Below, in pieces: positions 1 to 61,472 of a stretch of 64,000 bases of DNA. Both the position numbers and the translations under genes were made by a program. Position 1 is the first letter of the stretch. The number at the start of each line of letters is the position of its first letter. The stretch is from an uncultured Candidatus Rokubacteria bacterium. Its GTDB lineage: Bacteria > Methylomirabilota > Methylomirabilia > Rokubacteriales > CSP1-6. Where the stretch lies: contig CAVXJS010000011.1 of NCBI GenBank assembly GCA_963762145.1, forward strand, positions 64,001 to 128,000. The letters are read 5' to 3'. The notes under the pieces were generated by a model that did no database searches, had not been told where the DNA came from, and saw only the letters and a program-made list of their open reading frames with translations.

Positions 1-2
1 GC

Positions 3-362
3 GTCACCGCGGTCTATGCGGTGAACACACTCCACGTGGCAGAGGATCTTGATTTCACGCTGGGCCAGATCCTGCGCACGCTCCGTCCAGGCGGCTGGTT
101 GATCGTATCCGAGTGCGTACGGCCGTACCCGCGCCAGACCATCTATGCCGAGTTCATTTTCAATCTGATCCGGACATTTCGATCTCCGCGCCTGCACCCG
201 GTCTACCGCCCGAATGGTGGATTTCTCACCCCCGACCAGTGGAAGGGGGCGATCGAGTCCGCTGGGTTCGCGGACACGCGGTTCGTCCCGGATCTCATGC
301 AGATCCGCCAGAAGGTTCCCGATTTCTTGGCCGGCGCGATCGGAGCGATCCGCCCGAACTGA
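3..362 (+). CDS. Class I SAM-dependent methyltransferase, C-terminal part (5' truncated by window edge)
   Basis: Frame open from window start: VTAVYAVNTLHVAEDLDFTLGQILRTLRPGGWLIVSE resembles the motif II/III region (D-x-V-x-A-x-N-x-L-H ... L-x-P-G-G-x-L) of type 11/12 methyltransferases. Confidence 0.7.
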   Translation, partial: VTAVYAVNTLHVAEDLDFTLGQILRTLRPGGWLIVSECVRPYPRQTIYAEFIFNLIRTFRSPRLHPVYRPNGGFLTPDQWKGAIESAGFADTRFVPDLMQIRQKVPDFLAGAIGAIRPN

Positions 363-430
363 GCTCGGAAATCGGGGATGCTCTGCGGTCGGCTCGTGGG
401 GCGGCCGGCCGGCGCCGCCGCGCCGCGGCT

Positions 431-2727
<2,297 letters not shown>

Positions 2728-2731
<4 letters not shown>

Positions 2732-4770
2732 GGCTGCCCCGCGGCCGGCAGCGAGGCGGTGAAGCTGACCTCGCCGCGGCCCTGTTTGGCTTCGAGCCGG
2801 CCTCCCTGGCTCTCGAAGATCCGCTGGCTCACGCTTGGTCCCACGTCGATGAGATTCTCCTGCACGACCTGGATCGGATCGAAGATCGCCTGCAGCTCCT
2901 CGGCCCGCACCTCCGTGGTACGGGAGGCCACCGTGAGGCGCACGCGTTCGTCGCTCGGCAGATGGGAGATCGATACCGAGATCTTGGCCTCGGGCGCAGG
3001 CGTCTTGCGCAGGAGGTACCAGACCAGGTAGGACAGGGCCTTCTTGAACATCGCGTGATCACCGCGGACCAGCAAGGGCGAGCCCTCGTGGGACAGGGTC
3101 GCGGTGACGTGCTTCTGGGTGGACTCGTCGGTGAAGGTGAGGAGGCGCGCCTGCCCCTCGCCGTCGGGAAGGGCCTGCGCGCCCAGCTCGGCCAGGCACT
3201 CTTCCGCCACTTGCCGCAAGTCGAGCGTCTCGCGCTTGTAGTCGCCGTCGTTCACGAGGGCGGCGAGCTTGTCGAAGATCTGCACGAGCCGGCGCACGTC
3301 CCGGCCGACCACCGACGAGAACTGGTTGCGGAACGTCGCGTCGTCGTAGCGCTCGCCGATCAGCTCCATGAAGGCGTTGATGGAGACGAGCGGGTTCTTG
3401 ATCTCGTCCGCGATACGGGCCACCACCTGGGTGAGGAGCTGGAGCTGCTCGGCGCCGCGCCGCTCCTGGGCGAGCAGGCGCTGGGCGGTCAGATCCTCGA
3501 ACATCAGCACCGCCCCCATCGGCTCGGGGCTATCGCCCATCACCGGGTAGGTCGAGACCTCCAGCGGCAGATTGCGGAGAGCGAGCTGCACCTCGACCCG
3601 CGTCACCGAGCGTCCTCGGGACAGGGCCTCGAAGAGCATGTCGCCGAGCGGGGAGGGCAGCACGCGCAGGTCGCGATTCAGCGCTTCGCGCGCCGGCAGC
3701 GCGAGGATCTCCGACGCGCGGCTATTGATCCCGACGACCTTCTGGTCGGTGTCGATGGTGATGACGCCACTCGACATGCGCGCGAGGATCCGCTCGGTGA
3801 AATCCTTCTCGTACTGGAGCAGGTGATGCACCCGGATGTCGCGGATGGCGGTGGCCAGGTGAGCGCCGATGTTGAACAAGGTCTCGGTCTCGTCGCGCCG
3901 GTACCCGCCGCCGGTGATCCGCTGGCCCAAGGAGAGAATGCCCACCAGCTCCCCGTGCGAGCTGAGCGGAATCGCCACTACCGATTGCAGGACGGCCAGC
4001 TCGCGGGCGATCTCGCGAGTTTCAGGATCCGTGGCGCGGCTCTGAGCCTCTTCGATCTGGATGAGTCGACCCTCGGTGGCCAGCCACCGAGGCAGGCCGC
4101 CGTCCGCGCTCAGGGCGAGCGACTCCACGACGTGAGGCGCGAGGGCGCGATACGCGGCGACGCGGTAGAGGCGAGTGACGGGATCCGCGAGCAGGATCGC
4201 GCAGCGGCTCGGACGCGCCAGCTCCGCGACCCCGTCGAGGAACTGGTCCAGCACGCGCGGCAGATCGAAGCCGGCCGCGAGGGCCTTCGCGAACTCCTTC
4301 GCCATCTGGGTGAGCGCGTGCGAGGACGCGGGCGGGGCCGGCACCGCGGCGTCGTGCGCGCTCTCCGCGACCGGGCGCCGCGTCGACCGCAGGGCGGCCA
4401 CTTCCTGCAGCAGGCGGAGCTTGTCCTCGGCCTGCTTGAGCAGGGCCTGCAAGTGCCGGGTCGTGAACGGCTGGAGTAGCACGAAGTCGGCCGCCTCCGC
4501 CGCGCTCTCGTCCTCGGAGCTCGTGGAGCTCGGATTGAGTACGCACACGATGACCCCGGTGGGGCATAGGTGCCGCGCCCGCGTGATGAACGGGGCGAGA
4601 TGTTTGAGAGGTGGCGTGGCCTCCTTGATGATCAGCTCCATCTCGGTGAGGCGCAGGGTTCGCAGCGCCTCGTCATCCGAGGTGGCGGTGAAGACGGAGC
4701 TGTCCTCCAAGGCCCGAAGCAGCTTGGGGCGGAGCGACTCGCTCGCCGAGACCAGGAGGACGGTCTTCAC
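2728..4770 (-). CDS. Pseudo-histidine kinase (degenerate REC-GAF-PAS-HisKA-degenerate HATPase)
   Basis: H-box reads ARIADEIKNPL (His->Asp). N and G boxes are lost (KALSYLVWYL, SRTTEV, ENLIDVGPSVS). N-terminal REC-like domain lacks acidic pocket. GTGA overlap with upstream gene. Confidence 0.85.
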
Positions 4771-7271
4771 GGCGTGGCGTGCGCGGGCCGGCCCGAGGGG
4801 ACGGGGAACTCGACGGTGAACGTGCAGCCGGGCCGCCCGACGTTGTTCCGGGCGTGGATTCGCGCGCGGTGGGCGTCGGCGATGCTCCGGCAGATGGCGA
4901 GGCCCAGCCCCGTGCCCTGGGGCTTAGTGGTCACGAAGGGGTCGAAGATGGTCCCGAGGAGGTGGTCGGGGATGCCGGGACCGGTGTCCGCGACCTCGAC
5001 GAGCAGCGTGCTACCGCCTCCCTCGGAGAGGTCGGCTACACGTACGGTCAACTCGCCGCCGGGTTCCATTGCTTGGATGGCATTTAAGCACAGGTTCAGA
5101 AAAAGCTGCTGCAACTGTGAGGCATTGCCGAGCACCGGCCGTCGCGTCTGCTCGCCGACCCGCCGGAGCTGAATCTTGCGGTCGACGAGCTCGGCGTGGA
5201 GGGTCTCCAGGGTGTCGCGCAGCGGGTCCGAGACGTCGACCATCTCCATGGGATGCTGGGAGGCCCGCGACATCGTGCGGAACCGGCTCAGCAGATCGTC
5301 GATGCGCCCGATCTCCCGGCCGGCCGACCGGGAGAACATCTCGCGGAACTCCTCGTTCGCGCCGCGTGTGGGCAGGAGCTGCGCGTAGGTCTTGATCCCG
5401 ACGAGGGGATTGCGGATCTCGTGGATCAGGCCCGACGCGATCGCCTCGATCGAGGCCAGGCGCTCCGCCCGCCGCTTCTCCTGCTCCAGCTCCTTGAGCC
5501 GCGACATGTCGGCGAGCACCGCGACCGCACCCAGCGGCGCCCCGTCCGGCCCGCGCAGCGGCGACGTGGAGCACATGAGCGGCACCATCTGGCCCGCCGC
5601 GTCGGGTAGCGAGAACTCGATCTGGGACCGCGGCTCGCCATCGAGTGCGGTGGCGTGGAGCGCGCCGCCGAGCGGATTGGGCAGGCATTCGGGTGACTGG
5701 CCGCGCGCCACCTGGGCCGCCGTCCCGGTGAGCTGCTCGGCCGCCCGATTGAACAGGGTGATACGCCCGCGCGGCCCCACGGCCACGACCCCACTCTCGA
5801 TGGTCTCGAGGACCTTCCGCATCTCCTCGTTGACCTGGACCACGCGCGCGTGAGTCTGCGCGTTCCGCACCGCGACCGCTGCCTGGTTGGCGAGCGTTGT
5901 GAGCAAGTCGGCATCATTACTGAAATATGGATCGCCCGACCGCTTGGGGCCGAGGACGAGGAAGCCTATTAGTTCGTTCTCCTCGACGATCGGTCCGACT
6001 ACCTCTGCCCGGAGCTCATCCAACTCTCGAAGTAAGTGGTCGGTGTCGGTTGCTCGTGTAGAAACGATCTCGTCCCGAAAGACAAGCAGACGATTCTTGT
6101 CTAAAGTCAGTATCAAGGCTGAAGTTATCGGCAAAGCTGCTCCGAGACTTCCTGAGTAGAGGTTCCACTCCAACCTAAACTCATGATCTTCATGGTCGAG
6201 CAAGTATATGGACATCCCGTCTGGACGCAGCGTCGATGCTAGAGCGCGCCCTACGTGACCAAGAATTGCCTGCAGGTCTATCGTCGCGGTAAGCGCGCGA
6301 CTTGCTTCCCGGACTGTACGTGGATAGTCATACGGTTCCCGGTACAGGTAGAGGTCCAGTAAATGCTGGACCCGAGACTTTACGGATTGAAACGCCAAGG
6401 CAACGATCAGAGACAGTGCGATGTCGCGGAGCGAGAATCCGTGCTCGAGAGGCAGCAGGAAATTTGAGCTGAACAGGAGAGCGACGAAGAGTGCGGCGCT
6501 GCTAAGGAACGTGACGAGATAGACCACGCCTCGTCTGATGACCACGCGAATGTCCATGAATCGGTGCCGAATTATCGCGTGAGCAACCATCGCGATCATG
6601 ATCAGCGAAAATACTGGACCGAGCCCATTATAGGCTGATGTTCCAGCTACCAGAGGCACGAAGACATTCGTGGTTGTTGCCAATACTCCCGGAACGATGA
6701 ACGCGACAAACAAGTAGCCGGCTTGGGTCTTCTGAAACCCAGTGAGACGCTTGTACTGTCGAGCTAGCGTCGAGGCGGCAAGGGCAAAGCAAACGATCGT
6801 GTAACTCGCAAAGAGCGGATGCAAGAAACCATAGATAGGTCGCATCCCATACGCTTCGCGCGTGACTCCGCTGACCATCCAAGGTGAGAACGAGAGCGCC
6901 GACAGGCCGATCGCAACAGCGGCCAGTAGACGAAGCCGCCGCCTTTGGACAGTCTCTGGTGCTCCGAAGTGCACTACGAAGAGAAGGACGCCGAAAGGAC
7001 AGAGACTTCCTGCCCCGAAGGCGGCCCGGATGGCGAGTTCGAAGGAATCTGGCTGGAACCGTCCCCAGGACAATGCCATCGTCCACAAACCAATCGTCAG
7101 GGCAGTGAACGCGAATGCGCGGTTTAGTGACACGGATGGATTTCGACGATAAACATACAGACCAATGCCAACATTTAGGATGGCAATCCAGGCGAGCAAC
7201 AACGCGGCAATCGGCACCTGGCTCAGTTCAGTCGTCTCCTTGCATTGCTCGGGGCGCCGTTGGGCCGACAA
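4767..7271 (-). CDS. Membrane sensor histidine kinase, N-terminal 7TM (HisKA_7TM-like)-GAF-PAS-HisKA-HATPase
   Basis: About 300 aa of multiple hydrophobic helices (YRRNP..NRAF, RPIYGFLHP, AHAIIRHRFMDI), GAF end KRSGDPYF, H-box GLIHEIRNPL, G boxes DTGPGI/GTGLGL. Start uncertain (TTG 7271 or GTG 7217). Confidence 0.9.
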   Translation of the reverse strand: MSAQRRPEQCKETTELSQVPIAALLLAWIAILNVGIGLYVYRRNPSVSLNRAFAFTALTIGLWTMALSWGRFQPDSFELAIRAAFGAGSLCPFGVLLFVVHFGAPETVQRRRLRLLAAVAIGLSALSFSPWMVSGVTREAYGMRPIYGFLHPLFASYTIVCFALAASTLARQYKRLTGFQKTQAGYLFVAFIVPGVLATTTNVFVPLVAGTSAYNGLGPVFSLIMIAMVAHAIIRHRFMDIRVVIRRGVVYLVTFLSSAALFVALLFSSNFLLPLEHGFSLRDIALSLIVALAFQSVKSRVQHLLDLYLYREPYDYPRTVREASRALTATIDLQAILGHVGRALASTLRPDGMSIYLLDHEDHEFRLEWNLYSGSLGAALPITSALILTLDKNRLLVFRDEIVSTRATDTDHLLRELDELRAEVVGPIVEENELIGFLVLGPKRSGDPYFSNDADLLTTLANQAAVAVRNAQTHARVVQVNEEMRKVLETIESGVVAVGPRGRITLFNRAAEQLTGTAAQVARGQSPECLPNPLGGALHATALDGEPRSQIEFSLPDAAGQMVPLMCSTSPLRGPDGAPLGAVAVLADMSRLKELEQEKRRAERLASIEAIASGLIHEIRNPLVGIKTYAQLLPTRGANEEFREMFSRSAGREIGRIDDLLSRFRTMSRASQHPMEMVDVSDPLRDTLETLHAELVDRKIQLRRVGEQTRRPVLGNASQLQQLFLNLCLNAIQAMEPGGELTVRVADLSEGGGSTLLVEVADTGPGIPDHLLGTIFDPFVTTKPQGTGLGLAICRSIADAHRARIHARNNVGRPGCTFTVEFPVPSGRPAHATP

Positions 7272-7286
7272 TCCACGCGAGTGAGC

Positions 7287-9782
7287 CTAGCTGCGAAGTG
7301 CTGTCTTCTGTAGTAACTCAGCAGCCGCAGTAGGTACGGGTAGTTCTACGATCATCGTAGTACCCCGGCCAGTCAGGTTGCGCTCGACACGAATGGTTCC
7401 GCGATGCGCGTCTGTAATGCCACGGCAGATGGTCAACCCGAGGCCCGAGCCACGAGACTTAGTGGTAAAGAACGGATCGAAGATGTTGGCGGCAACTGCA
7501 TCGGATATCCCCGGTCCGGTGTCAGAGACATCGACAACAATCAGTGGCATGCCTTGCGAGTGCCGTCGTGTGATCCTAACGGTCAGTGCACCATCGGTGC
7601 CCATAGCTTCAATTGCATTGAGAAACAAGTTGAGGAAGAGTTGCTTGAGCTGACTTTCCTCGATGCTCACAAACGGTGCTGGGTCCTCGAACTCGCGCAC
7701 AACTGCCGTGCGGGTTTGCTCCAATTGACCTCTCAACAATGTCAGAGTGTCGTTGATCGGATCCCGGAGATCGACGGCGCCAACCTGCTGAGGTGCCGTT
7801 GTGGCAAGGCCTCGCAATCGAGCGACGAGATCGTCGATGCGGGAGATCTCTTTAATTACAACCTTGGAAAAGTCTTCCCGAAATTCGACGTCACCGAATC
7901 GCTCCGGAAGCAGCTCAGCAAAGGTGCGTATGGCGACGAGAGGATTCTTGATCTCGTGTGCAATGCCCGCCGCAAGGGCTCCGAAAGAAGCTAGGCGCTC
8001 GGCACGCTGCTTCTCCCGTTCGAGGTCCTTGAGCCGGGTCAGGTCAGTGAAGACTATGAGCGCCCCGTGTGTTGTTCCGTCCTTGTCTTGGAGCTTAGTT
8101 GTTGAGTACACGAGGGGCAGACCCGATCCATCACGTTGATGTAGAACCGTCTCGAGTTGGGAATGGGCGGACCCTTCGAGGAGAGTGCTCCGAAGCGGCC
8201 CAGCCAGCGGTGTGGGTAGGTCGTTGTAGGAGAGACCGGCGGACGATGAAAACCGCATATTGGTTAGCCGGTCCGCCGCGGGATTAAACAGGGAGATGTG
8301 TCCGGTGGCGTCTACCGCGATTACGCCGCTTTCCATAGTCGAGAGGATGTTATCGACGTATTCATTGGCTACGACAACTTGACTGTAGAGGTGGGCGTTC
8401 TTCACTGCGACGGCAGCCTGACTGGCCAATGTTGAGAGGAGGTCGATGTCGCGGGAGTAAAACGGGTCGCCGGAGCGTTTTTCGCCAATGATGATGAAGC
8501 CGGCCAGCACTTCATCCTGAAATAGAGGGAATAGAATCTCGCCGCCAACACGCTCCAACATGTTGGCGGCGTCAGATAGCAGGGCGTGATCAGTGTCGAG
8601 TACATCATCTCGGGTGAGGGTGCGCTTGTGGATGCTCAGATAGGAAGGCAGTGCCGAAGCGTAGGGGATGGGGGCAATGGAATAACCGGCTGGTCGTTGA
8701 TCAGATGTAGCAATCTCCGGCGCGGAGAAGGCGCGGAGAGCGTCGTTTCGAAGGTAGATTTGAACAAGTTCGACTTTAAACGTCCTGCGGACGGTGTCAG
8801 CGAGGTAGCCGAGAAGCGACTGTAGATCGAGCATGGTGCTCAAGCGAAGCGTAGTCTCGCGAAGTGTTCGCTGGTAGTCGTACGTATGCCGATACACGTA
8901 TCTGTTTAGCGTCGCCTGCAGCCAGTCCTTTAGGGGCCCGAAGAATACGGAGACCGCTATAGCGAGCAGCAGTGCTTCAAGGATCGGAATCGTTGTTCTT
9001 TGGAATCCGGTTACGTGATGTAGCGCTTCAACGAGAGCGAAGAACGTCGATGCGGTTACTACGATGGCCCCCACATAGACGACACCATTGCGAATCACCA
9101 ACTGGATGTCCAGGAGACGGTGTCGAATGATTGCGTGTGCAATGATCGCAATCATTAACATCCCGAAGAGCGGCCCATAGGGACTGAATCGCGACGTCTC
9201 GAAGACGAGCGGAATGAGGAGATTGGTGACGGTCGCTCCGAGAGCGGCAATCAAGACGGCAGCGAACAGGTAGCGAACCTGAAGTTTCTCCAGGCCGGTC
9301 AGAGATCGGAGTTTCCGGACGAGAATAAAGAGACTTGTTCCGAAGCAACAAATGAGATACACCGCGAACGGCAAATGGAGTGGTCCGTGGAGTACCTGAA
9401 GAGTGCCGTCCTTCGATGCAGTATTGCGGACCATCAAAGACGTGAACGAGACGATGAACGAGATGGCCGCTACTATCGAGAACAAGTTCAGAAGGCGCCG
9501 AGAGGCATGCGGCTGGAAGGTTGGAAAGACATCAGCGAACCGTAGGAAGGTTATCGGAATAAGCGAGGCGGAGGCGAACGCGAGTCGGGCCCAGACGGTC
9601 CCTGAGTCGTATCCAGCGTACGATGACACGAGGCCGTTACTGAGCGTCCAAGCAGCGACAGCAAGAGAGAAGAAGGCGAAATGCCGATTGATTGCCTTAA
9701 GTGGATTCTTCAGATAGACGAAGAGGCCAAGCCCGAAGTTGGCGATGGCAGCTATGACAATAAATGTGAGGCGGCCCGTCAT
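7287..9782 (-). CDS. Second 7TM-GAF-PAS sensor histidine kinase (paralog of 4767-7271)
   Basis: True start is probably ATG 9782 (MTGRLTFIVIAAIANFGLG), overlapping the ketosynthase stop as ATGA. YLKNP..NRHF, AHAIIRHRLLDI, KRSGDPFY, H-box GIAHEIKNPL, DTGPGI, GSGLGL. Confidence 0.92.
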   Translation of the reverse strand: MTGRLTFIVIAAIANFGLGLFVYLKNPLKAINRHFAFFSLAVAAWTLSNGLVSSYAGYDSGTVWARLAFASASLIPITFLRFADVFPTFQPHASRRLLNLFSIVAAISFIVSFTSLMVRNTASKDGTLQVLHGPLHLPFAVYLICCFGTSLFILVRKLRSLTGLEKLQVRYLFAAVLIAALGATVTNLLIPLVFETSRFSPYGPLFGMLMIAIIAHAIIRHRLLDIQLVIRNGVVYVGAIVVTASTFFALVEALHHVTGFQRTTIPILEALLLAIAVSVFFGPLKDWLQATLNRYVYRHTYDYQRTLRETTLRLSTMLDLQSLLGYLADTVRRTFKVELVQIYLRNDALRAFSAPEIATSDQRPAGYSIAPIPYASALPSYLSIHKRTLTRDDVLDTDHALLSDAANMLERVGGEILFPLFQDEVLAGFIIIGEKRSGDPFYSRDIDLLSTLASQAAVAVKNAHLYSQVVVANEYVDNILSTMESGVIAVDATGHISLFNPAADRLTNMRFSSSAGLSYNDLPTPLAGPLRSTLLEGSAHSQLETVLHQRDGSGLPLVYSTTKLQDKDGTTHGALIVFTDLTRLKDLEREKQRAERLASFGALAAGIAHEIKNPLVAIRTFAELLPERFGDVEFREDFSKVVIKEISRIDDLVARLRGLATTAPQQVGAVDLRDPINDTLTLLRGQLEQTRTAVVREFEDPAPFVSIEESQLKQLFLNLFLNAIEAMGTDGALTVRITRRHSQGMPLIVVDVSDTGPGISDAVAANIFDPFFTTKSRGSGLGLTICRGITDAHRGTIRVERNLTGRGTTMIVELPVPTAAAELLQKTALRS

Positions 9783-11032
9783 CGGAGGTTCGACTTCCCC
9801 AGGATGAGAACTGAATGAGTGCCGCCCATCGCGTGTGCATTGATCAACACAGTCCGGACTCGAGAGATACGGGCTTCGTTCGGGACGTAGTCGAGATCGC
9901 ACTCAGGGTCGGGGACTTCGTAGTTGATCGTCGGGGGAAGTATGGAGTGTTCGAGAGTAAGGCAGCTGGCGACCGTCTGGAACGCGCTCGCAGCTCCCAT
10001 TGCATGGCCGATCATGGACTTGATCGAGCTCACCGGGATGGAGTAGGCTCTCTTGCCAAAAACCTGATGGAATGCGCGCGTTTCGATTAGGTCGTAGTCG
10101 GGCAAGGAATTGCCGTGGGCATTTATGTAGTCAATGTCCTCGGGTCTGAGGCTCGCAGCCTCGAGGGCAGAGTTAATTGCCTCGGCGAGCGCAAGCTCCG
10201 CTGCGTTCATCCTATTGCCAAACCCGCCCTCATTTCCGCTTCCGAACCCCAGTACCTCAGCGTAGATATTTGCACCTCGGTCGAGAGCGTGGCCGAGTTC
10301 CTCGAGAATGCAGATCGCTGCTCCTTCTCCGAGTACGAGCCCGTCTCTGCGCCTGTCGTAGGGGCGCGAAGCCTTGAGCGGCGGGTCATCGAACTTGGAT
10401 AGTGCCCCCAGCGCACAAAGAGTCGCAAAGCAGAACTCGGAAATTGGGGCCTCGGTGCTGCCTGCGAAAACTACGTCTGCCTCGTTCTCTCGGATCCGAT
10501 CGGCCGCCCACTGGATTGCGTCGACGCCGGTAGCGCAGGCAGATGCGATGGTCATTCCTTGCCCGCGGATGCCAAGTTCCGACGACACGTGACTAACGGG
10601 AGCATGAGCAGCGAACTCGATCCCGCTCATCGTCGGAATACCCTTCATGCCCTCGCGATCGAAGCCAAGGCGAGCGGTCTCGTACACGTCGCCCGAGCCA
10701 TTCATGGAATTGCCTAGGCAAGCGAAAACCCGCCTGGCCGGCTCAATCCCGAGATCAATACCTGCATCGGCCTGCGCGAGCTTTGCGGCGCCGACAGCAA
10801 ACTGGGAAAATCTGCCGCGATGCTTCGTCCTTCGCACGTGCATGAACGCCTTCGGGTCGAAGTCTCGTATCTCGCCGGCAACCTGGCAGGGGTAGGGCGA
10901 AGCATCGAACGCGGTGATGTAATCGATGGCGGACTTGCCCGCGATCAGGTTCTGCCAGAAGGTTTCCTTGCCGATGCCGTTGGGGGCAACGACACCCAAC
11001 CCCGTAATAACTACTCGCCGGGAGTTCTTCAT
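9779..11032 (-). CDS. Stand-alone beta-ketoacyl-ACP synthase (FabF/KAS II-like), divergent active-site motifs
   Basis: RRVVITGLG N-terminus, catalytic Cys in TIASACATG, His in INAHG and KSMIGH, SRPYDRRRDGLVLGEG. C-terminal NAHAMGG instead of NSFGFGG. AGGGGG SD-like sequence upstream. Confidence 0.9.
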   Translation of the reverse strand: MKNSRRVVITGLGVVAPNGIGKETFWQNLIAGKSAIDYITAFDASPYPCQVAGEIRDFDPKAFMHVRRTKHRGRFSQFAVGAAKLAQADAGIDLGIEPARRVFACLGNSMNGSGDVYETARLGFDREGMKGIPTMSGIEFAAHAPVSHVSSELGIRGQGMTIASACATGVDAIQWAADRIRENEADVVFAGSTEAPISEFCFATLCALGALSKFDDPPLKASRPYDRRRDGLVLGEGAAICILEELGHALDRGANIYAEVLGFGSGNEGGFGNRMNAAELALAEAINSALEAASLRPEDIDYINAHGNSLPDYDLIETRAFHQVFGKRAYSIPVSSIKSMIGHAMGAASAFQTVASCLTLEHSILPPTINYEVPDPECDLDYVPNEARISRVRTVLINAHAMGGTHSVLILGKSNLR

Positions 11033-11149
11033 CAGGCCCGTGCCCCCTAAGGGTGCGTGATAAAAGGTGGGATAGAGCCTATAAAGTAGCAGGAAATAAA
11101 TCTAAAACCAAATCCCGTCGTCCGGGTGCGTCGAGTAGAATGCCACCAT

Positions 11150-11953
11150 ATGGAGCACTTGCTGAGCCGACGGCAGCTGCTGGTCGCCCTGCCGCTCGGG
11201 CTGTTGTTCGGCCTCCGCCGGGCCCAGGCCTTGGAAGACGGCCGATCCGCCTTCAACTACAAGCTTGATCTATCTGTTCTCTTTAGCTTTTTGACTCTTT
11301 CCGTGACCGGCACCGCGGTTCAGGAGATTGACCGCCGGGCCGGGAAGTATCGGATGACGATGGAGGGGCAGGGCACGGGGATCAGCACCCGCACGGAGGC
11401 CAATGGCATCATCCGGGACGGCCGCTTCAAGCCGGTCGAGACGAAGGCGGTCCACCACTTCAGGAACCGCCAGAACACCTCTATCACCACCTACGACTAC
11501 ACTCGGCAGCGAGCCGAGATCCACGCGGTCAGCCACACACTGCTGCTGGGCCGCCGCCGGCAGATAGACGACGTCTTGGCCATTCCCCCGGAGCGCCACG
11601 TGGACGATCTCATCTCGGCCGCGCTGAACTTTGCCGAGGACTTGCTCGACCGCGAACCGGATGGCACGTACCACACCTGGGTGGTCCGTCGGGCCCGCGC
11701 CGCCAACGAAGGGCCGGACGACGTCTCGCCGGACGGTTACCGTGCCGAGCTGGTCCCGCTGCGCTTCCGCCCGACCCCCGACCCGGCCACCGGGGGTCTC
11801 ACCACGCAGATCGACATCACCCGCTTCTCGTCCTGGGCCCGCCCCGACCAGCCCGCCCGGGTCACGTTCGCGCCGGACCGGCAGCTCTCGTCCGTCCAAT
11901 CGGTCCTGCAGTACGGGACGACCCTCAACGTGCGTGTGACAGGCACCGCGTGA
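11150..11953 (+). CDS. Tat-exported beta-rich protein, DUF3108-like
   Basis: Start ATG 11150: MEHLLSRRQLLVALPLGLLFGLRRAQA is a twin-arginine signal (SRRQLL, AQA cleavage site). Family assignment by resemblance only. Confidence 0.6.
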   Translation: MEHLLSRRQLLVALPLGLLFGLRRAQALEDGRSAFNYKLDLSVLFSFLTLSVTGTAVQEIDRRAGKYRMTMEGQGTGISTRTEANGIIRDGRFKPVETKAVHHFRNRQNTSITTYDYTRQRAEIHAVSHTLLLGRRRQIDDVLAIPPERHVDDLISAALNFAEDLLDREPDGTYHTWVVRRARAANEGPDDVSPDGYRAELVPLRFRPTPDPATGGLTTQIDITRFSSWARPDQPARVTFAPDRQLSSVQSVLQYGTTLNVRVTGTA

Positions 11954-12930
11954 GCCGGCCCGAGCCGCAGCACGATCTGGTCGGCCTCGGCGAGGTGATG
12001 CTACGGCTCGCCGCCCGCCCGCCCCAGCGTCTCGAGCAGGCCCAGGACCTGGACGTGCAGATCGGCGGCACCGAGGCCAATGTGGCCGCGGCCTGCGCCC
12101 GGCTCGGCCTGCGCACCGCCTTCATCTCGGTGCTGCCGTCCGAGCACGCGTGGGGCGACCGCACGATCCGCGAGCTGTCGGGACACGGGGTGGACTGCCG
12201 TGGCGTGCTCCGCCGCGCGGGCCAGCGCATGGGTCTCTACTTCATCGAGTACGGCATGACGCCGCGGCCGGTCCGCATCCTCTACGATCGGCGCGACTCT
12301 GCGTTCAGTCGCCTCGTGGCGGACGACGTGGACTGGTCGCTGATCCGGAGCGCCCGGCTCGTCCATCTCACCGGGGTGACCGCCGCGCTCGGGGACAACG
12401 TCCGCGACGTCGTGCGGCGCGCGATCGCGGAGGCGGCGGCGGCGGGCGTGCCGGTATCCTTTGACGTGAACTATCGCTCCCGTCTGTGGAGCCCGAAGGA
12501 GGCGCGGGATTTCCTCGGGGAGATCCTGCCGCGTCTCGGGTATCTCTTCATCGGCGGAGACGACGCGGCCACCGTGCTTGAGCTGGAGGGTACGCCCGAG
12601 CAGGTGCTCGCCGGGCTGCGCCGCCTCGCGCCCACGGCCACCATCGCGCTCACGCTGGGGGAGGCCGGGTCCGCGGTGCTCACCGAGCGCGGCGTCCACC
12701 GGCCGTCCAAGCTCTACACGGTCTCGGTGGTGGACCGGGTGGGGGCGGGGGACGCCTTCGCGGCGGGGTTTCTCTGGGCCACGTTGACCGGCCGCGATGC
12801 GCAGCAGGCGGTGGACGCCGGGACTGCCTTGGCCGCGCTCAAGTGCACGATCTGGGGCGACGTGCCCGTGGTGAGCCGGGCCGAGCTCGACGAGCTGCTG
12901 GCCACGGATAGCACCGAGATCCGCCGCTAG
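11950..12930 (+). CDS. PfkB-family sugar kinase (2-keto-3-deoxygluconate kinase-like)
   Basis: GEVMLRL, GGTEANVA, YDRRDSA, FDVNYRSRLW, DRVGAGDAFAAG PfkB signature. Confidence 0.9.
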   Translation: MSRPEPQHDLVGLGEVMLRLAARPPQRLEQAQDLDVQIGGTEANVAAACARLGLRTAFISVLPSEHAWGDRTIRELSGHGVDCRGVLRRAGQRMGLYFIEYGMTPRPVRILYDRRDSAFSRLVADDVDWSLIRSARLVHLTGVTAALGDNVRDVVRRAIAEAAAAGVPVSFDVNYRSRLWSPKEARDFLGEILPRLGYLFIGGDDAATVLELEGTPEQVLAGLRRLAPTATIALTLGEAGSAVLTERGVHRPSKLYTVSVVDRVGAGDAFAAGFLWATLTGRDAQQAVDAGTALAALKCTIWGDVPVVSRAELDELLATDSTEIRR

Positions 12931-12939
12931 CGAGGGGCC

Positions 12940-13815
12940 GTGGCGCGCTCCGCCGTCCTCGTCCACAATCCCGGCTCCGGTCAGCGCCGCGATCGCTTCC
13001 ACTCGATCACGCGGATGGTGGATGCCCTCCGCGCGCGCGGCGTCACGGTCACCCCGCAGGTCACCACCGGCCCCGCCGACGCCACCCGGCTCACCGCGGC
13101 CGCATTGCTGGCGCGCACGGACCTGATCATCGTGCACGGCGGCGACGGCACCGTGAACGAGGCGATGCAGGTTGTGGTCGGCACGGCCACCCCGCTCGCG
13201 GTGTGGCCGGGCGGCACGTCCAACGTGCTGGCCCGCGAGCTCGGGCTGCCGGGCGGCATCGAGCTCCTCGCCGACGTGTTCGCGGCAGAGCGGATCCGGC
13301 GGGTGTCGGTGGGCCGGGCGGGGGAGCGCTACTTCCTCCTCATGGCCGGGGTCGGCCTCGATGCCGACGTCGTGCGGGCAATCCACCCGGGGCTCAAGCG
13401 CCTGACGGGCGAAGGGGCTTACTGGATGGCCGGGCTCCGCCAGCTCGCGGACTGGCACCCCGTGCACTTCGTGCTGGAGACCGACGCCGGCCAGCACCGC
13501 GCCACCTTCGCCGTGGTGGCCAACGCGGCGTCCTACGGCGGGGGCCTGCGCTTCGCCCCGGACGCGCGCATGGACGACGACCTGCTCGACATCTGCCTGT
13601 TCGACTCCACCCAGCGCCACCGCTTCGCCCGCTACCTGGCCGCGGCCTTCACGGGCTCGCATCTGGGCATGCCCGGCGTGACGTACCTGAAGGCCCGTCG
13701 CGTGGTGGTGCACGGCGACCCCGGCCGCTTCGTGCAGGTCGACGGCGAGCTGCTCGGCCCGCTGCCCGTCACCTTCGAATGCGTGCCCGACGCCCTATCC
13801 CTGGTGGTGCCGTAG
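12940..13815 (+). CDS. Diacylglycerol kinase-family (YegS/DAGK) lipid kinase
   Basis: HNPGSG, GGDGTVNE, PGGTSNVLAR, GVGLDA, YGGG, QVDGE motifs. Confidence 0.92.
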   Translation: MARSAVLVHNPGSGQRRDRFHSITRMVDALRARGVTVTPQVTTGPADATRLTAAALLARTDLIIVHGGDGTVNEAMQVVVGTATPLAVWPGGTSNVLARELGLPGGIELLADVFAAERIRRVSVGRAGERYFLLMAGVGLDADVVRAIHPGLKRLTGEGAYWMAGLRQLADWHPVHFVLETDAGQHRATFAVVANAASYGGGLRFAPDARMDDDLLDICLFDSTQRHRFARYLAAAFTGSHLGMPGVTYLKARRVVVHGDPGRFVQVDGELLGPLPVTFECVPDALSLVVP

Positions 13816-13833
13816 AAGCGGAGGCTCCAGCGG

Positions 13834-13842
13834 TGGTATAGT
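13834..13842 (+). promoter_or_regulatory. Extended -10 element (TGG-TATAGT) 7 nt before the helicase ATG; probable leaderless promoter
   Basis: cggTGgTATAGTtcgcctgATG, with no SD between element and start. Confidence 0.55.
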
Positions 13843-13849
13843 TCGCCTG

Positions 13850-16759
13850 ATGGCGGAGGGAGGGCGGGGCGCCGAGCGGATCCTCGAAGGGCTGAACGCG
13901 CCCCAGGCGGCGGCCGTCACCCACGAGGCCGGGCCGTTGCTCATCATCGCGGGCGCGGGCACCGGCAAGACCACCGTCATCACCCGCCGGATCGCCTACC
14001 TCATCGCGACCCGCGCCGCGCGCCCCTCCGAGATCCTCGCGCTGACCTTCACCGACAAGGCGGCGGCCGAGATGGAAGAGCGCGTCGACACCCTGGTGCC
14101 CTACGGCTACGCCGACGTGCAGATCGCCACCTTCCACGCCTTCGGCGACCGCCTCATCAAGGAGAACGCGCTCGAGCTGGGGCTCACCCCGGAGTTCCGC
14201 GTGCTGACCCGCGCCGAGCAGATCATCTTCCTGCGCGACCACCTCTTCGAGTTCCCGCTCAAGCACTACCGGCCCCTCGGCGACCCCACGCGGCACCTCC
14301 ACGCGATCCTCACCCAGTTCAGCCGCCTGAAGGACGAGGACGTGGGCCCGGACGAGTACCTCGGCGCACGCCGAGGAGCTGCTCGCCGCCGCCGCCGATG
14401 ACGAGGCCCGCCTCGCCGCCGAACAGCACCTCGAGCTCGCGCGCACTTACGCGCAGTACCAGACGCTGATGGCCCGGCTCGGGCAGATCGACTTCGGCGA
14501 CCAGATCGTGGAGGCCCTGCGCCTCTTCCGTACCCGCCCGCACGTCCTGCGGCGCTACCAGAGCCGCTACCGGTACATCCTGGTGGACGAGTTCCAGGAC
14601 ACCAACTACGCGCAGTTCGAGCTGGTCAAGCTGCTGGCGGCCCGGCATCGCAACGTGGCGGTGGTGGGCGACGACGACCAGGCCATCTTCCGCTTCCGCG
14701 GGGCGTCGATGAGCAACATCCTCGACTTCGACCGCACGTATCCGGACGCGCGGCAGGTCGTGCTGCAGGAGAATCGCCGCTCGCCGCAGGCGGTGCTCGA
14801 CGCGGCCTACCGGCTCATCCAGCACAACAACCCCGACCGCCTCGAGGTGGCCCAGAAGATCGACAAGCGGCTCATCTCCACTGTGGGGCACGGCGGAGGC
14901 GCCGCGGCACCTGCCGTTCGACACCGTCTCCACCGAGTCCGACCAGGTGGCCGAGCTGATCCGGGAGGAGCACGCGCGCGGCCGGCCCTATCGCGACATC
15001 GCGGTGCTGGTGCGGGCCAACAACGACGCCGACCACTACCTGCGCGCGCTCAACATGCGGGGGATCCCGTGGACCTTCTCGGGCAACGCGGGGCTCTACG
15101 GCCGGCCCGAGGTGCGCCTGCTCATCGCGTTCCTGCGCAGCGTGGTGTACACCGACGACTCGGTCAGCCTCCACTACCTGGCGTCCTCCGACGTCTACCA
15201 GGTCCCGATCGTGGACCTCACGAACTGCGCGACGTACGCGACCCGGAAGAACCGCCACCTCTTCGACGTGCTGCACGACGCTGCCCGCCGACCTGGCGGT
15301 GAGCGACGAGGGGCGCCTGGCGATCGCCCGGCTGGTGGCCGATCTGAGCCGATACATGGAGCTCGGCCGCGAGCATCCGACCGGCGAGGTGCTCTACCAG
15401 TTCCTCGTCGACTCCGGGCTCATGACCCGCTACGCGAAGGCGCCCGCGGAGCTCGAGCAGGAGGTGCAGAACGTCAGCAAGTTCTTCACCCGGGTCAAGG
15501 ACGCGGCGCGGGTGCTCAAGTACGACAACGTGCGCGAGTTCGTGAGCCACCTGGACGCGCTCATGGACGCGGGCGACGATCCGGCGGTGGCCGAGGCCGA
15601 TACCGAGACGCCCGCGGTGCACGTGCTCACCGTGCACAAGTCCAAGGGCCTCGAGTGGCCGATCGTGTTCATGGTGGACTGCGTGCAGAACAAGTTCCCG
15701 TCCACCCGGCGCTCCGATCCGCTCGAGATGCCGCCCGGGCTGATCAAGGACCTGCTGCCCACCGGGGACTTCCACGAGCAGGAGGAGCGGCGCCTCTTCT
15801 ACGTGGGCATGACCCGCGCCAAGGAGCGCCTCTACCTCACCAGCGCGGAGGACATGGGGGGCAAGCGCAAGTGGAAGGTGAGCCAGTTCGTGGTGGAGGC
15901 GCTCGACCTGCCGAAGGACGCGGCGCGCCCGTTCCGGGCGAAGGCCATCGAGGGGCTGCGGCGCCAGGCGCCCGCCCCGGATCTGGCGGGCCTCGGGCTC
16001 GCCCCGATCCCGGACGACGAGCCGCTCGCGGTGAGCCACCGGCAGGTGGACGACTACGAGACGTGCCCGCTCAAGTACCAGTTCATCCACATCCTGCGCA
16101 TCCCGCTGCGGCAGCACCACGCGGTGGTCTACGGCAACGCGCTCCACCAGGCGGTCGAGTTCTACCTGCGCCGGCGCGCGGCGGGCAACTACACCTCGCT
16201 CGAGGACTTCCTCACCGCCTTCGACAAGGCGTGGCGCAACGAGGGCTTCCTCACGCGCGACCACGAGGAGCAGCGCAAGCGCGCGGGGATCGCGGCGCTG
16301 ACGCGCTTCTATCACGAGGAGGAGGCCTCGGGGCAGAAGCCCACCGACGTGGAGCGGGAATTCGGCTTCACCCTGGGTCTCGACCGGGTGCGCGGGCGCT
16401 TCGACCGGGTGGACGAGACGCCCGACGGTCTCGTGATCGTGGACTACAAGTCGAGCGACGTCACCGACCAGAAGAAGGCCGATCAGCGCGCCCGGGAGAG
16501 CCTCCAGCTCAAGATCTACGCCCTGGCGCAGCACGCGATGACGGGCCGACTGCCCGCCCGCGTGGAGCTGCGCTTCCTCGAATCGGGGCTGATCGGGCGG
16601 CACACGCCGACCGAGCTGGACCTGGCGAAGGCCCGCGAGGCCATCGCGGAGGCGGCGCGCGGCATCCGCCAGCGCGAGTTCGAGGCGACGCCCGAGTACC
16701 AGGCCTGCCGCTATTGCCCCTACAATCAGATCTGCCCGAGCACCGCCACCCAGGAGTGA
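13850..16759 (+). CDS. UvrD/PcrA-family ATP-dependent helicase with C-terminal PD-(D/E)xK nuclease (AdnB/AddA-like), split by three +1 frameshifts
   Basis: Walker [80 protein letters not shown]. Frames rejoin after removing one base near 14363, 14887 and 15280. Confidence 0.88.
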
Positions 16760-16770
16760 ATTCGATATAT

Positions 16771-16873
16771 CCTCCCTCACCCTCCCCTCTCCCCGGCGGG
16801 GAGAGGGTGCTCGGAACCCTCGCCCCCGAAGGGGGAGAGGGGAGGGTGAGGGGGAGATGGGTGAGGGGGAGAT
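16771..16873. repeat. REP-like palindromic repeat doublet (inverted pair)
   Basis: CCCTCACCCTCCCCTCTCCCC-GGC-GGGGAGAGGG followed by an inverted copy ending GGGGAGAGGGGAGGGTGAGGG, plus a tandem GGGTGAGGGGGAGAT duplication. Confidence 0.8.
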
Positions 16874-16888
16874 CTCACGGGGGGGACC

Positions 16889-17689
16889 ATGAAACTCAAC
16901 GCGAACGGCATCGAGATCAACTACGAGATCGAGGGCGAGGGCCCGGTGGTGACGTTCAGCCACTCGCTCGCCTGCAACCTCTCCATGTGGGACGAACAGG
17001 TGCGCGCCCTCAAGAGCCGCTATCGCGTCCTGCGCTACGACACGCGCGGCCACGGGCAGACCGCCGCGCCGACGGGCGCCTACTCGCTCGACCAGCTCGC
17101 GGACGATCTGAAGGGGCTCCTCGACGGCCTCGGCATTCGCGAGACCCACGTCGTGGGGCTCTCGATGGGCGGCATGATCGGCCAGGTCTTCGCGCTGAAG
17201 CGCCCCGCGATGGTCCAGAGCCTCGCGCTCTGCGACACCACGAGCCGGTACGCCCAAGGGGCCGCCGCGATCTGGGAGGAGCGCATCAAGACGGTGGGCG
17301 CCAAGGGCATGGAGCCGATGGTGGCCCCCACGCTCGACCGCTGGTTCACCGCGCCGTTCCGCGCGCGTCGCAAGGATCTGATGGAGCGCGTGGGCGCCAT
17401 GATCCGCGCCACGCCCGCCGCGGGCTACATCGGCTGCTGCCACGCGCTCCCGAAGATCAACGTCACCGAGAAGCTGCGGAACGTGCGCTGCCCGGCGCTG
17501 GTGATCGTCGGCGAGGAGGATCCCGGCACGCCGGTGGAGATGGCGCGCGACATCCACGCGGCGCTGCCCACCGCGGAGCTGGCGGTGCTGTGCCGCGCCT
17601 CGCACCTGTCGAATCTCGAGCAGCCCGAGGAGTTCAATCGGGTGCTCGGAGGCTTCCTCGACAAGCTGAGCGGCCGGACGAAGCTCTAG
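16889..17689 (+). CDS. Alpha/beta hydrolase, 3-oxoadipate enol-lactonase (PcaD/CatD)-like
   Basis: SHSLACNLSMW, RYDTRGHG, nucleophile GLSMGG, GEEDPGTP, SHLSNLEQPE. Confidence 0.85.
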   Translation: MKLNANGIEINYEIEGEGPVVTFSHSLACNLSMWDEQVRALKSRYRVLRYDTRGHGQTAAPTGAYSLDQLADDLKGLLDGLGIRETHVVGLSMGGMIGQVFALKRPAMVQSLALCDTTSRYAQGAAAIWEERIKTVGAKGMEPMVAPTLDRWFTAPFRARRKDLMERVGAMIRATPAAGYIGCCHALPKINVTEKLRNVRCPALVIVGEEDPGTPVEMARDIHAALPTAELAVLCRASHLSNLEQPEEFNRVLGGFLDKLSGRTKL

Positions 17690-17704
17690 GGCGCGACCCG
17701 CGTC

Positions 17705-19406
17705 ATGCCCCCGGCCCGTTCCGCGGCGGCGGTCGTCCGGCAGATCCGCCTCTGGACGGGCCTCGTGCTCTTCGCCTATCTGACGACCCACTTCCTCAAC
17801 CACGCCCTCGGGCTCGTGTCGCTCGAGGCCATGGCGGCCGGGCAGGAGTGGTTCGTCCTGGTCTGGCGCAGCCTCCCGGGCACCGTGGCGCTCTACGGCT
17901 CGTTCGCCATCCACAACCTGCTCGCCCTCTGGGCGCTCTACCGCCGGCGCACGCTCCGCATGCCCGCCTGGGAGGCGAGCCAGCTCACGCTGGGCCTGCT
18001 CGTGCCGCCCCTCCTCGTGTGGCACGTGGTGGGCACGAGGCTGGCGCACGAGGTGGCCGGAACGCTGACGAGCTACACGCTCGTGGTGCTCGTGCTCTCG
18101 CAGCTCGATCCGATCGCGGGCCTCCGCCAGGTCGTCGTCCTCATCGTCGCCTGGATCCACGGCTGCATCGGGCTGCACTTCTGGCTGAGGCTCCGGCCCT
18201 GGTATCCGCGCCTCGCGCGAATGCTCTACAGCGGGTTTCTGCTCGTGCCGGTCCTGGCCCTGCTCGGGTTCGCCGCCGCGGGCCAGGAGGTGGCCCGGCG
18301 GGCGCGCGAGCCCGGCTTCGTGCAGACCGTGATCCGCGAGGCCCGACTGCCGAGCCCGGCGCAGCGGGAGGCGCTGGGACGGGTGGCCCGCGCGATCTTC
18401 TGGGGGGATCTCGGCGCGATCGCGCTGGTGCTGGCGGCGCGCGCGGTCCGGGAGCATGTCCGCCGGCGGCAGGGCGTGCGCATCGAGTATCCGGCCGGCC
18501 GCGAGGTGCTCGTCCCCGCCGGGTTCACGCATCCTCGAGGCCAGCCGGTTCGCGGGGATCCCGCACGCCTCGGTCTGCGGCGGACGCGGCCGCTGCTCGA
18601 CGTGCCGGGTGCGCGTGATCCGGGGCGAGGCGCTGCTGCCCGCGGCCACCACGGACGAGCTGCGCGTGCTCGGACGCGTGGGAGCGCCGGCTCACGTGCG
18701 CCTGGCCTGCCAGGTGCGGCCCCGGCGCGATCTCGCGGTGGTGCCGCTCGTGCCCGCGGGGGCGGGGCCGGCCGAGGCCCTCCCGAGCGAGCATCGCGAC
18801 GGCGAGGAGCTGACCATCGCGGTGCTCTTCGCCGACCTGCGCGGGTTCACCCGGCTGGCCGAGCGCAAGCTCCCGTACGACGTCGTCTTCATCCTCAACC
18901 GCTACTTCGAGGCGGTCGGGGGAGCCATCACGGACGCCGGCGGCATCGTCAATCAGTTCACGGGCGACGGCGTCATGGCGCTCTTCGGCGTGGACGGGGC
19001 AGGCCCGGAGGAGGGCTCCCGGCAGGCGGTGCGCGCGGCGGCGGCGATGGTGGCCCGCGTGCAGGAGCTGAGTCGCACCCTCGCCGACGACCTGGACACC
19101 GCGCTGCGCCTCGGGATCGGCATTCACACCGGCCCCACCGTGGTCGGCCAGATGGGCTACGCGTCCACCACCTACCTGACCGCGGTGGGCGACACGGTGC
19201 ACGTCGCGGCCCGTCTGGAGGCCCTGACGAAGGACTACGCGTGCGAGCTGGTGCTCTCCGAGGAGGTCGCGGTGCAGGCGGGGCTCGACGTCTCGGATCA
19301 CGCGCGCCACGAGCTGACGGTGCGCAATCGCGAGGCGCCGCTGGCCATCTTCGTGGCGCCGAGCGCGGGGCGCCTCGCCGAGCGGCTCGCCCGCGTGCCC
19401 GCATGA
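17705..19406 (+). CDS. Membrane class III nucleotide cyclase with heme-b-type TM domain and 2Fe-2S ferredoxin (CyaC-like); one +1 frameshift near 18530
   Basis: TM His residues (THFLNH, IHNL, WHVV, WIHGCIGLH), then after the shift CGGRGRCSTC...LAC ferredoxin and FADLRGFT/GDGVMALF/GIGIHTG cyclase core. Confidence 0.85.

Positions 19407-34034: not shown

Positions 34035-34042
<8 letters not shown>
32723..34042 (+). CDS. Membrane sensor histidine kinase
   Basis: About 5 TM helices, H-box VAHEVRNP, NLVKNGMEA, DSGAGI, FFTTKPQGTGLGL. Start may be ATG 32735. Confidence 0.92.
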
Positions 34043-35455
<1,413 letters not shown>

Positions 35456-35459
<4 letters not shown>

Positions 35460-60000: not shown

Positions 60001-60125
60001 CAAGGGACCGGGCTCGGCCTGGCGATCGCGCAGGGCTTCGTGGCCGACCACGACGGCCGCTTCGAGGTCGACTCCCGCGTCGGCGCCGGCACCACCTTCC
60101 GCGTCATCCTGCCGGTGACTCGCTC

Positions 60126-60129: not shown

Positions 60130-61472
<1,343 letters not shown>

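Follow-up and report, generated by a model that had tools for sequence, protein, structure and literature searches.

A low-GC ketosynthase and sensor-kinase block exchanged between Rokubacteria lineages: a candidate signalling specificity cassette

The locus described here lies in a window of 64,000 nucleotides, i.e. the whole stretch of DNA that was analysed, from an uncultured Candidatus Rokubacteria bacterium (contig CAVXJS010000011.1), one of a group that lives in soil and groundwater, and consists of an operon read on the minus strand in the order ketosynthase (KS), histidine kinase 2 (HK2), histidine kinase 1 (HK1), pseudokinase (PSK) and hybrid kinase (HYB). We find that the block running from about codon 70 of KS through HK2 into the N-terminal part of HK1 occurs in a few deep types that have been exchanged between lineages, and that the promoter, the 5' end of KS, the HK1 core, PSK and HYB remain with the host while KS and the seven-transmembrane (7TM) sensor of HK2 travel together. 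We hold with high confidence that a matched KS/HK2 pair is exchanged allelically at one fixed site. An earlier reading made from the sequence alone (the sequence-only reading) had proposed allelic exchange of a matched synthase and receptor, and the fixed locus, the intragenic junctions and the joint exchange of synthase and receptor sensor all agree with this notion, but the matched sensor is that of HK2 and not that of HK1. As for function, the arrangement suggests a specificity cassette in the manner of agr and comQXP, assembled from different parts and serving a quorum signal, and this is the reading that we favour with moderate confidence.

The exchanged block and its junctions

The window has a GC content of 70%, and the block departs clearly from this value, since the 1-kb bins between 6001 and 10000 lie at 0.547-0.563 and the bin 10001-11000 at 0.597, as compared to 0.645-0.784 in the other 59 bins. 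Recounting G+C in the four 60-nt stretches quoted in the sequence-only reading returned exactly the claimed values of 43, 30, 26 and 28. The G+C fraction at third codon positions (GC3) is 0.95 in HYB, 0.91 in PSK, 0.63 in HK2 and 0.69 in KS, and within HK1 (open reading frame, ORF, 4767-7271) it rises from 0.611 in the N-terminal part to 0.903 in the C-terminal part. The best changepoint is codon 453, corresponding to window position 5912 (interval of two log-likelihood units 5870-5915; log-likelihood ratio, LLR, 50.0, with no more than 8.7 in any of 200 shuffles of the codons), and it is found between the motifs KRSGDP (residues 443-448) and LANQAAVA (residues 460-467), where a switch near 5900 had indeed been placed. 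Amino-acid composition, which had been named as a cause of the low GC that would refute the reading, is rejected, since the same kinase-core domain in 31 loci has a mean GC3 of 0.60 in HK2 versus 0.86 in HK1 with near-equal G+C at second codon positions (0.43 versus 0.45).

Relatives of the locus were collected by a scan of GTDB, which holds one genome per species, anchored on PSK, and the best 80 of 99 were used; 70 of these are labelled Rokubacteria or Methylomirabilota, eight bear other names and are probably mislabelled, and the gene order is conserved among them. Homologues that bear a name likewise place the host in Ca. Rokubacteria / Methylomirabilota. PSK served as the host-lineage marker throughout. 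Clustering of KS gives type A (10 sequences including the window), type B (8), type C (10) and a single outlier, L034, and the number of changes in KS type that must be assumed is 3, the lowest possible, on the KS and HK2 7TM trees, 5 on the HK2 core tree, 6 on the HK1 7TM tree, 8 on the HK1 core tree and 9 on the PSK tree. Shuffled type labels average 12-14 changes, more than any of these, and the types are therefore also partly inherited with the host. Furthermore, two host clades that are present in the HK1 core tree, L017+L019+L050 and window+L004+L011+L008, are rejected by approximately unbiased (AU) tests for KS and for the HK2 7TM sensor (p ≤ 3e-5), and the type-A clade, present in the HK2 7TM tree, is rejected for the HK2 core, the HK1 7TM sensor, the HK1 core and PSK.

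Individual pairs of loci are likewise discordant. L017 (type A) and L019 (type B) are 95% identical in PSK and differ in KS type, their HK2 sensors being 54% and 39% like that of the window, and L008 is 82% identical to the window in PSK, 55% in KS and 35% in the HK2 sensor, whereas the distant L071 shares 50% of PSK and 68% of KS with the window. In DNA, the window and L008 are 82-83% identical on both flanks, the identity reaching 210 nt into KS (window 10823), being gone or reduced to patches of 65-70% inside the block, and returning at about 6014. Conserved flanks around a divergent interior are what the sequence-only reading had predicted for relatives, and uniform identity across the locus is not what is seen. 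The same pattern is found between L017 and L019, where identity is lost 256 nt into KS and is back at about codon 200 of HK1, and between the window and the same-type L011 and L004 it is nearly continuous, with dips. The closest type-discordant pair is about 86-89% identical in the flanking DNA.

At the upstream end, codons 1-60 of KS have a mean GC3 of 0.78 versus 0.59 for the rest of the gene (23 loci), and in a DNA tree of KS codons 5-60 close hosts group whatever their type, the type-A clade being rejected (p 1.3e-5). Since both the 5' end of KS and the promoter follow the host, both junctions are intragenic and the promoter is unswapped. The exchanged block thus extends from 5912/6014 to about 10823 and ends inside HK1 and KS, the downstream junction (5870-6014) being delimited by the GC3 step at 5912 and by the return of DNA identity to the other-type L008. 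It had been claimed that the low-GC block reaches the AT-rich promoter (11130), and low GC does continue through HK2 and KS, but the exchanged part ends at about 10820 inside KS, and the promoter and the first 60-70 codons or so of KS follow the host.

The hallmarks of a mobile genomic island, i.e. integrase or transposase, tRNA target and flanking direct repeats, were not found, in line with what had been noted by eye: the 9 + 37 window ORFs scanned hold no integrase or transposase domain, no tRNA was found in the window, and there is no flanking direct repeat, the longest repeat family being the paralogy of HK1 and HK2 with a spacing of 2535 nt. An Rfam scan of window 1-20000 likewise gave no match.

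The ketosynthase, its probable receptor and the proposed signal

KS is a stand-alone ketosynthase of type A, encoded on the minus strand by a type-specific part (codons ~71-417, 9779..10822) and a host-lineage part that may act as homology arm (codons 1-70, 10823..11032). It has the FabF fold, with a TM-score of 0.92 to Bacillus subtilis FabF at 40% identity, and yet it fails the FabF equivalog model TIGR03150 (403.7 bits versus a cut-off of 493.75) and forms, with four library representatives, a clade of its own with a support of 98 in a tree of 81 sequences. The residues C166, H306, K338, E139 and H143 are invariant in all 22 full-length sequences. The Cys-His-His triad C166/H306/H343 is present in the window and in 120 of 120 close homologues, and across the types position 343, the second catalytic His, is H in A, Q in B and in C, and N in L034. 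The C-terminal gate motif also differs by type, and relative to FabF the motifs HGTST and SLGFGG are replaced by HGNSL and AHAMGG. Nonsynonymous divergence (dN) is 0.05-0.17 versus a synonymous divergence (dS) of at least 1.0 in KS and the sensors, and 0.06-0.07 versus 1.1-2.0 for KS alone in four same-type pairs, and since dN is far below dS we can conclude that KS is maintained; indeed, purifying selection acts on all parts tested.

Among 21 scanned proteins, FabF-like ketosynthases are fused to signalling domains in 16 (P0381, P0394, P0404, P0405, P0414, P0421, P0433, P0453, P0465, P0475, P0489, P0490, P0492, P0498, P0499 and P0504), with PocR in 11 (seven of them also carrying GGDEF), PilZ in four and REC in one. 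These fusions fall outside the Rokubacteria KS clade, most of the PocR and two of the PilZ fusions grouping together, and possibly they constitute a separate, undescribed signalling use of ketosynthases.

HK1 and HK2 are both HisKA_7TM-GAF-PAS-HisKA-HATPase kinases, 41% identical to each other, and HisKA_7TM (PF16927) is matched in the two at 42.1 and 59.3 bits versus a gathering score of 28.6. The HK2 sensor (residues 1-231, 9090..9782, minus strand), the start of which overlaps the stop of KS in an ATGA at 9779-9782, is modelled as seven helices with an outer, predicted extracellular beta-hairpin (predicted local distance difference test score 82), and co-varies with KS type. Searches with the model by Foldseek and VIA-align return G-protein-coupled receptors (GPCRs) almost throughout, with Z of 12.8-16.5 and a root-mean-square deviation of about 4 Å over about 210 residues, but helical bundles can attain a Z of about 13 through a common arrangement of their helices, and likeness of fold does not demonstrate function. 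The remainder of HK2 (linker, GAF, PAS, HisKA and HATPase, 7287..9089, minus strand) is low in GC throughout and has a mosaic history, following KS type in part and the host in part; its phospho-accepting histidine, H609, is invariant in 25 of 25 HK2. The probable start of HK1 is a GTG at 7217, the longest ORF extending to 7271. Its fast-diverging N-terminal part (5913..7217, minus strand, GC3 0.61) comprises the PF16927 7TM sensor at about 6549-7196, two further helices and most of GAF, and its C-terminal part (end of GAF, PAS, HisKA and HATPase, 4767..5912, minus strand, GC3 0.90) is host-like and vertically inherited, with a tree that matches PSK.

As to which of the two sensors is matched to KS, the partial Mantel correlation with KS distances given PSK is 0.87 for the HK2 7TM sensor (26 loci), 0.78 for the HK2 core and 0.59 for the middle, cytoplasmic GAF region of HK2, as compared to 0.16 for the HK1 7TM sensor (24 loci) and 0.08 for the HK1 core (28 loci). 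Conversely, the partial correlation with PSK is 0.96 for the HK1 core and 0.84 for the HK1 sensor. The HK2 7TM sensor is therefore the probable cognate receptor of KS.

The HK1 sensor was considered in the same role and rejected, in view of its partial correlation of 0.16, the AU test and its usually belonging to another sensor class. In a joint tree of 64 sensors, a clade with 100/100 support unites 10 HK2 sensors (nine of type-C loci and one of a locus with no KS type assigned) with 19 HK1 sensors, including those of L071, L075, L076 and L036, the hosts of which carry KS of type A or B. The HK1 sensor of the window belongs to a group made up of 12 HK1 sensors and none from HK2, an A-class sensor is found on HK1 of L032, and HK1-type cores occur in four of 119 database homologues with an A-like sensor. 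To judge from these groupings, HK1 usually bears a sensor of a class other than that of the resident KS. HK1 sensors do not form one clade (p 6e-59, 33 rows) and HK1 cores do, and the sensors are therefore exchangeable modules, at times replaced together with the block (L017 versus L019). Since it mostly tracks the host and is usually of another class, the HK1 sensor probably belongs to a second, non-cognate receptor.

The fold of KS, the fold of the sensor and the precedent of PpyS together suggest a lipid signal with a cognate membrane receptor. KS would condense or transfer acyl groups drawn from primary fatty-acid metabolism to give a small lipid signal, the structure of which would differ by type; HK2 would sense the cognate signal in a GPCR-like pocket; HK1 would present a sensor of another class, for an ancestral signal or that of a neighbour, on a host-matched core; and both kinases would feed PSK and HYB. 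The types themselves may be exchanged by homologous recombination, with the KS 5' end and the conserved kinase motifs as arms, and the lineages probably use different chemical 'dialects'. More tentatively, and here we are on balance doubtful, the locus may represent an undescribed quorum-sensing chemistry in which a dedicated subfamily of FabF-fold ketosynthases, with types that diverge even at the catalytic triad, produces lipid signals that GPCR-fold kinases read. The types would then be a balanced polymorphism older than the species, 'one voice, two ears', in which the cognate HK2 is swapped along with the enzyme and HK1 goes on responding to an ancestral type or that of a neighbour, and the low GC would be a lasting scar of lost GC-raising recombination that captures trapped genes, as in L075, offering a natural experiment on GC-biased gene conversion in bacteria. 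A signalling role of the cassette would make it the first candidate system of cell-cell signalling in this abundant soil lineage, which is uncultured; its synthase would be of a new class, and a first ligand of the GPCR-like HisKA_7TM sensor domain would come within reach. Matched and mismatched pairs of enzyme and receptor are available among the natural types, and the hypothesis is consequently testable without culturing the host.

In one alternative there is no diffusible signal at all, and KS is an intracellular partner of HK2, as an acyl-chain sensor or an acyltransferase acting on it, that co-varies with the kinase by contact, somewhat like RpfF binding to RpfC in Xanthomonas. This notion is in agreement with the translational coupling implied by the ATGA overlap, with the lack of the second catalytic His in types B and C, with the 16 of 21 more distant KS relatives fused to PocR, GGDEF, PilZ or REC, and with a between-type divergence that is alike in the inner and outer sensor halves. 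We nonetheless consider it unlikely, since the catalytic Cys and first His are invariant, since the best tracker of KS is the membrane sensor rather than the cytoplasmic GAF region and the fused relatives lie outside this KS clade, and since it is not evident why private partners should come in long-lived, species-crossing types or need a second receptor of a different class.

Capsule and O-antigen loci typically exchange between conserved flanks, are low in GC and have balanced types, and the evidence for exchange would fit equally well if the product of KS were an envelope lipid or an antagonistic metabolite, specific to the type and diversified under pressure from phage or competitors, with HK2 as a feedback or self-resistance monitor. 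This is distinctly unlikely, however, because the block encodes a single enzyme and two receptors and lacks genes for tailoring, export or immunity, and because the receptors feed a conserved multi-kinase relay.

A number of points weigh against the signalling cassette that we favour. The co-variation of KS and HK2 is partly expected from linkage alone, the HK2 core itself correlating at 0.78, and the types do not differ chiefly in the outer half of the sensor, identity between them being 0.32 there and 0.35 in the inner half. Moreover, Pfam searches of the operon genes found no acyl carrier protein, exporter or DNA-binding regulator. The types are named from the clustering of KS, so that their presence in the KS tree is circular; the trees are mostly quick LG+G4 searches; and all allele comparisons are between species. 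The sample of KS is limited by many short contigs, KS being alignable in 28 of the 80 loci, HK2 in 32 and full-length HK1 in 33 (the window being extra in each case), and several long-read loci have split genes. Finally, L039 and L065 reach the upstream flank yet have no KS-HK2 at the usual site, in L075 the pair is displaced, and L034 has only one kinase.

Low GC, variant loci and neighbouring genes

Several of the loci are variants of the common arrangement. L034 (6263-10004) has a KS with Asn343 followed by a single kinase that is low in GC3 only at its 7TM domain, which amounts to a minimal form of the block, and in L039 (4927-7445) two DDE transposase genes separate HK1 from the divergent neighbour and KS-HK2 is missing, possibly a signal-negative variant. 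L064 and L065 are 92% identical in the DNA of their flanks, and in L065, where KS-HK2 is absent from the usual site, a low-GC gene resembling HK2 lies beyond uvrD, some 8-10 kb upstream. An extra partial kinase segment is found between HK1 and PSK in L019 (8882-9972) and, upstream of PSK, in L022.

The displaced pair in L075 and the distant HK2-like gene in L065 are what could be expected if several ancestral KS-HK2 pairs had been lost differentially, i.e. hidden paralogy with no allelic exchange. Different types are however found at the same position, in frame with a host-specific KS 5' end and promoter, and HK2 of L008 combines a sensor of type B with a core that clusters with that of the window, all of which makes such paralogy highly unlikely.

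The composition of the block is likewise not peculiar to this genome. An upward GC3 step is found in 34 of 34 full-length HK1 genes (LLR 10.8-84), and GC3 is 0.55-0.70 in 29 of 29 KS and 0.55-0.72 in 33 of 33 HK2, as compared to 0.80-0.98 in 77 PSK (window included), and the feature is therefore lineage-wide. The steps occur at codons 202-242 (n=17), 282-323 (n=7), 362-413 (n=4) and 436-457 (n=6), mostly just ahead of conserved blocks near 230-240, 310-320 and 450-460, although the enrichment at conserved positions is weak (0.62 versus 0.58, p 0.025, the loci being non-independent), and the part that is always low comprises the 3' part of KS, HK2 and the 7TM domain of HK1.

A single recent import from a low-GC donor, i.e. 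an ordinary genomic island now ameliorating, would account for the sharp compositional step and for the correlation of only 0.37 between the tetranucleotide signatures of block and flanks. It is rejected, and we regard it as most improbable, because GC3 is low in all alleles and because same-type relatives differ at 50-73% of four-fold degenerate sites in the block (27-44% in the flanks) while G+C at these sites (GC4) stays at 0.52-0.64 in all of them. Much of the branching inside each type is that of the host, and the low-GC HK1 sensor follows the deep host split. Furthermore, in L075 (~2000-8000; one metagenome-assembled genome, MAG) KS-HK2 has uvrD on one side and pfkB on the other, and pfkB and the divergent neighbour, which lie within the block and are not rejected from the host clade, have a GC3 of 0.54 and 0.57 versus usual medians of 0.90 (23 loci) and 0.85 (24 loci). 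A tblastn search of plasmids with KS gave 173 records, all below 60% identity, and the 15 best matches listed are ordinary FabF or ketosynthases with no identity above 43%.

Low GC in every sampled allele and its persistence under silent turnover mean that it neither dates nor proves transfer, and the simplest reading is that it is a standing positional property of the block rather than a sign of recent foreign import. Three-taxon maximum-likelihood estimates of ancestral GC have bootstrap intervals that, for the block, span zero, the silent sites being near saturation. As a weaker part of the proposed mechanism, the low GC may arise because there is no recombination between unlike alleles inside the block, which would thereby escape whatever keeps GC3 at about 0.9 elsewhere, be it GC-biased conversion or selection. 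A loss of GC-biased conversion where unlike alleles cannot pair would fit the link between recombination and GC reported in PMC4450053, but repeated import out of an unsampled low-GC pool, or selection for AT-richness, may also be at work. A sharp low-GC block is not necessarily a sign of recent horizontal transfer and may instead be a lasting feature of a locus that has long been polymorphic.

All of the genomes are MAGs and contigs often break at the junction, but an assembly chimera is hardly credible given that the reading frames run intact through both junctions, that all 34 full-length HK1, from many independent assemblies, have the same pattern, and that L004 and L011 are collinear with the window over the whole block. 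Among 74 loci (six having been dropped for a truncated or misplaced PSK), 29 of 67 still-running contigs stop 1-2 kb upstream of PSK, at the block edge, versus four of 72 at the same distance downstream, an excess that fits, indirectly, with assemblies broken by co-occurring alleles.

Downstream of HK1, PSK (2728..4770, minus strand) is a conserved GAF-PAS-HisKA pseudokinase with no HATPase_c match, in which Asp455 of the motif RIADEIKNP occupies the phospho-His position and is invariant in 26 of 26 aligned sequences. It adjoins three intact kinases and has 977 homologues at E ≤ 1e-30 among 8000 candidates. HYB (431..2731, minus strand, GC3 0.95), the last gene of the operon, has the Pfam architecture REC-GAF-PAS-HisKA-HATPase-REC, is conserved with distances that track PSK and not KS, and is likely a downstream relay. 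The 31 ORFs past HYB vary between loci, are of ordinary metabolism and are not part of the system.

Upstream, the AT-rich divergent promoter region (11033..11149) is common to relatives of different KS type and is not exchanged. It holds conserved boxes, TTGG...TGCTAnnnT on the minus strand (11111-11083) and TAGAAT on the plus strand (11136-11141), that by their conservation seem to resemble a -35/extended -10 and a -10, respectively; a scan of the region for the sigma-70 consensus gave no site at threshold, and a sigma-54 promoter was dropped by eye, the GG-GC spacing being 17 and not 10. The conserved divergent neighbour (11150..11953, plus strand, ORF from 11126) has a likely ATG at 11150, encodes 267 residues with no Pfam match or assigned function, and has a host-lineage tree. 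It has a twin-arginine-like SRRQLL N-terminus and DUF3108/DUF6134 look-alikes and stands head-to-head with KS in most loci that reach that far; that it could be an exported lipid carrier is speculation.

Elsewhere in the window, the end of a methyltransferase-like ORF (1-362; GC 0.62 over 1-300) converges on HYB where other loci hold different genes, a UvrD/PD-(D/E)XK helicase-nuclease (13850-16759) and an adenylate-cyclase-like gene (17705-20194) appear to be split across frames, probably by sequencing indels, and two more pairs of a kinase and a sigma-54 response regulator (32723-35459 and 57055-61472) may be outputs.

Comparison with known systems

The junctions of agr lie inside agrB and agrC, and in Bacillus the comQXP' stretch is variable and of lower GC with a conserved ComP core. 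The present locus shares with these systems adjacent, co-oriented genes for enzyme and receptor in a conserved order, discrete types in which enzyme and sensor (that of HK2, not HK1) co-vary in conflict with the host tree, and junctions inside the flanking genes with conserved genes downstream. Like agr of Staphylococcus aureus, it has a linked variable block for signal making and reception, with downstream gene and flanks that are independent. According to PMC8768832, agrBDC vary together and apart from agrA and the flanks, and the groups are not monophyletic on the host tree, which is explained by rare homologous recombination. Unlike agr, however, the locus has a ketosynthase, two tandem HisKA_7TM-GAF-PAS kinases, a pseudokinase and a hybrid kinase in place of peptide, peptidase and AgrA-type regulator, its types are seen between species across a lineage, and its function is predicted. 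ComQXPA has, according to PMC4008528, polymorphic adjacent signal and receptor genes, one upstream promoter and communication groups, and the likeness again lies in adjacent polymorphic genes for signal enzyme and receptor under an upstream promoter, whereas the signal is a prenylated peptide there and presumably an acyl-derived molecule here, the sensor family is another, and a second receptor of another class is present here. Pfam and NCBIfam searches of the operon found no peptide precursor, AgrB peptidase, ComQ prenyltransferase or AgrA/ComA regulator.

The stand-alone ketosynthase recalls the Photorhabdus systems PpyS/PluR (photopyrones) and DarABC/PauR (dialkylresorcinols), PpyS being described in PMC7154725, in its available part, as a stand-alone ketosynthase that makes a signal from two acyl chains of fatty-acid metabolism, with no allelic cassette of PpyS or DarB mentioned in that part. 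PpyS is however FabH-like and read by a cytoplasmic LuxR protein, whereas KS best matches FabF, is paired with membrane kinases and has no LuxR domain beside it in the operon. From FabF (KAS II) itself, with which it shares the fold, the Cys and the first His, KS differs by its score below the TIGR03150 cut-off, the variable second His, the separate clade and the absence of acp or fab genes nearby. HK1 and HK2 both pass the Pfam cut-off for HisKA_7TM, and the available part of PMC5847659 lists the domain as an archaeal and bacterial sensor and gives no ligand. Searches of the open literature, with subscription papers and supplements outside their reach, found no description of the locus or of a pairing of a ketosynthase with HisKA_7TM, and the papers found to name the domain list it as an archaeal and bacterial sensor. 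By analogy, then, the locus would work like agr and ComQXPA; it is a member of neither.

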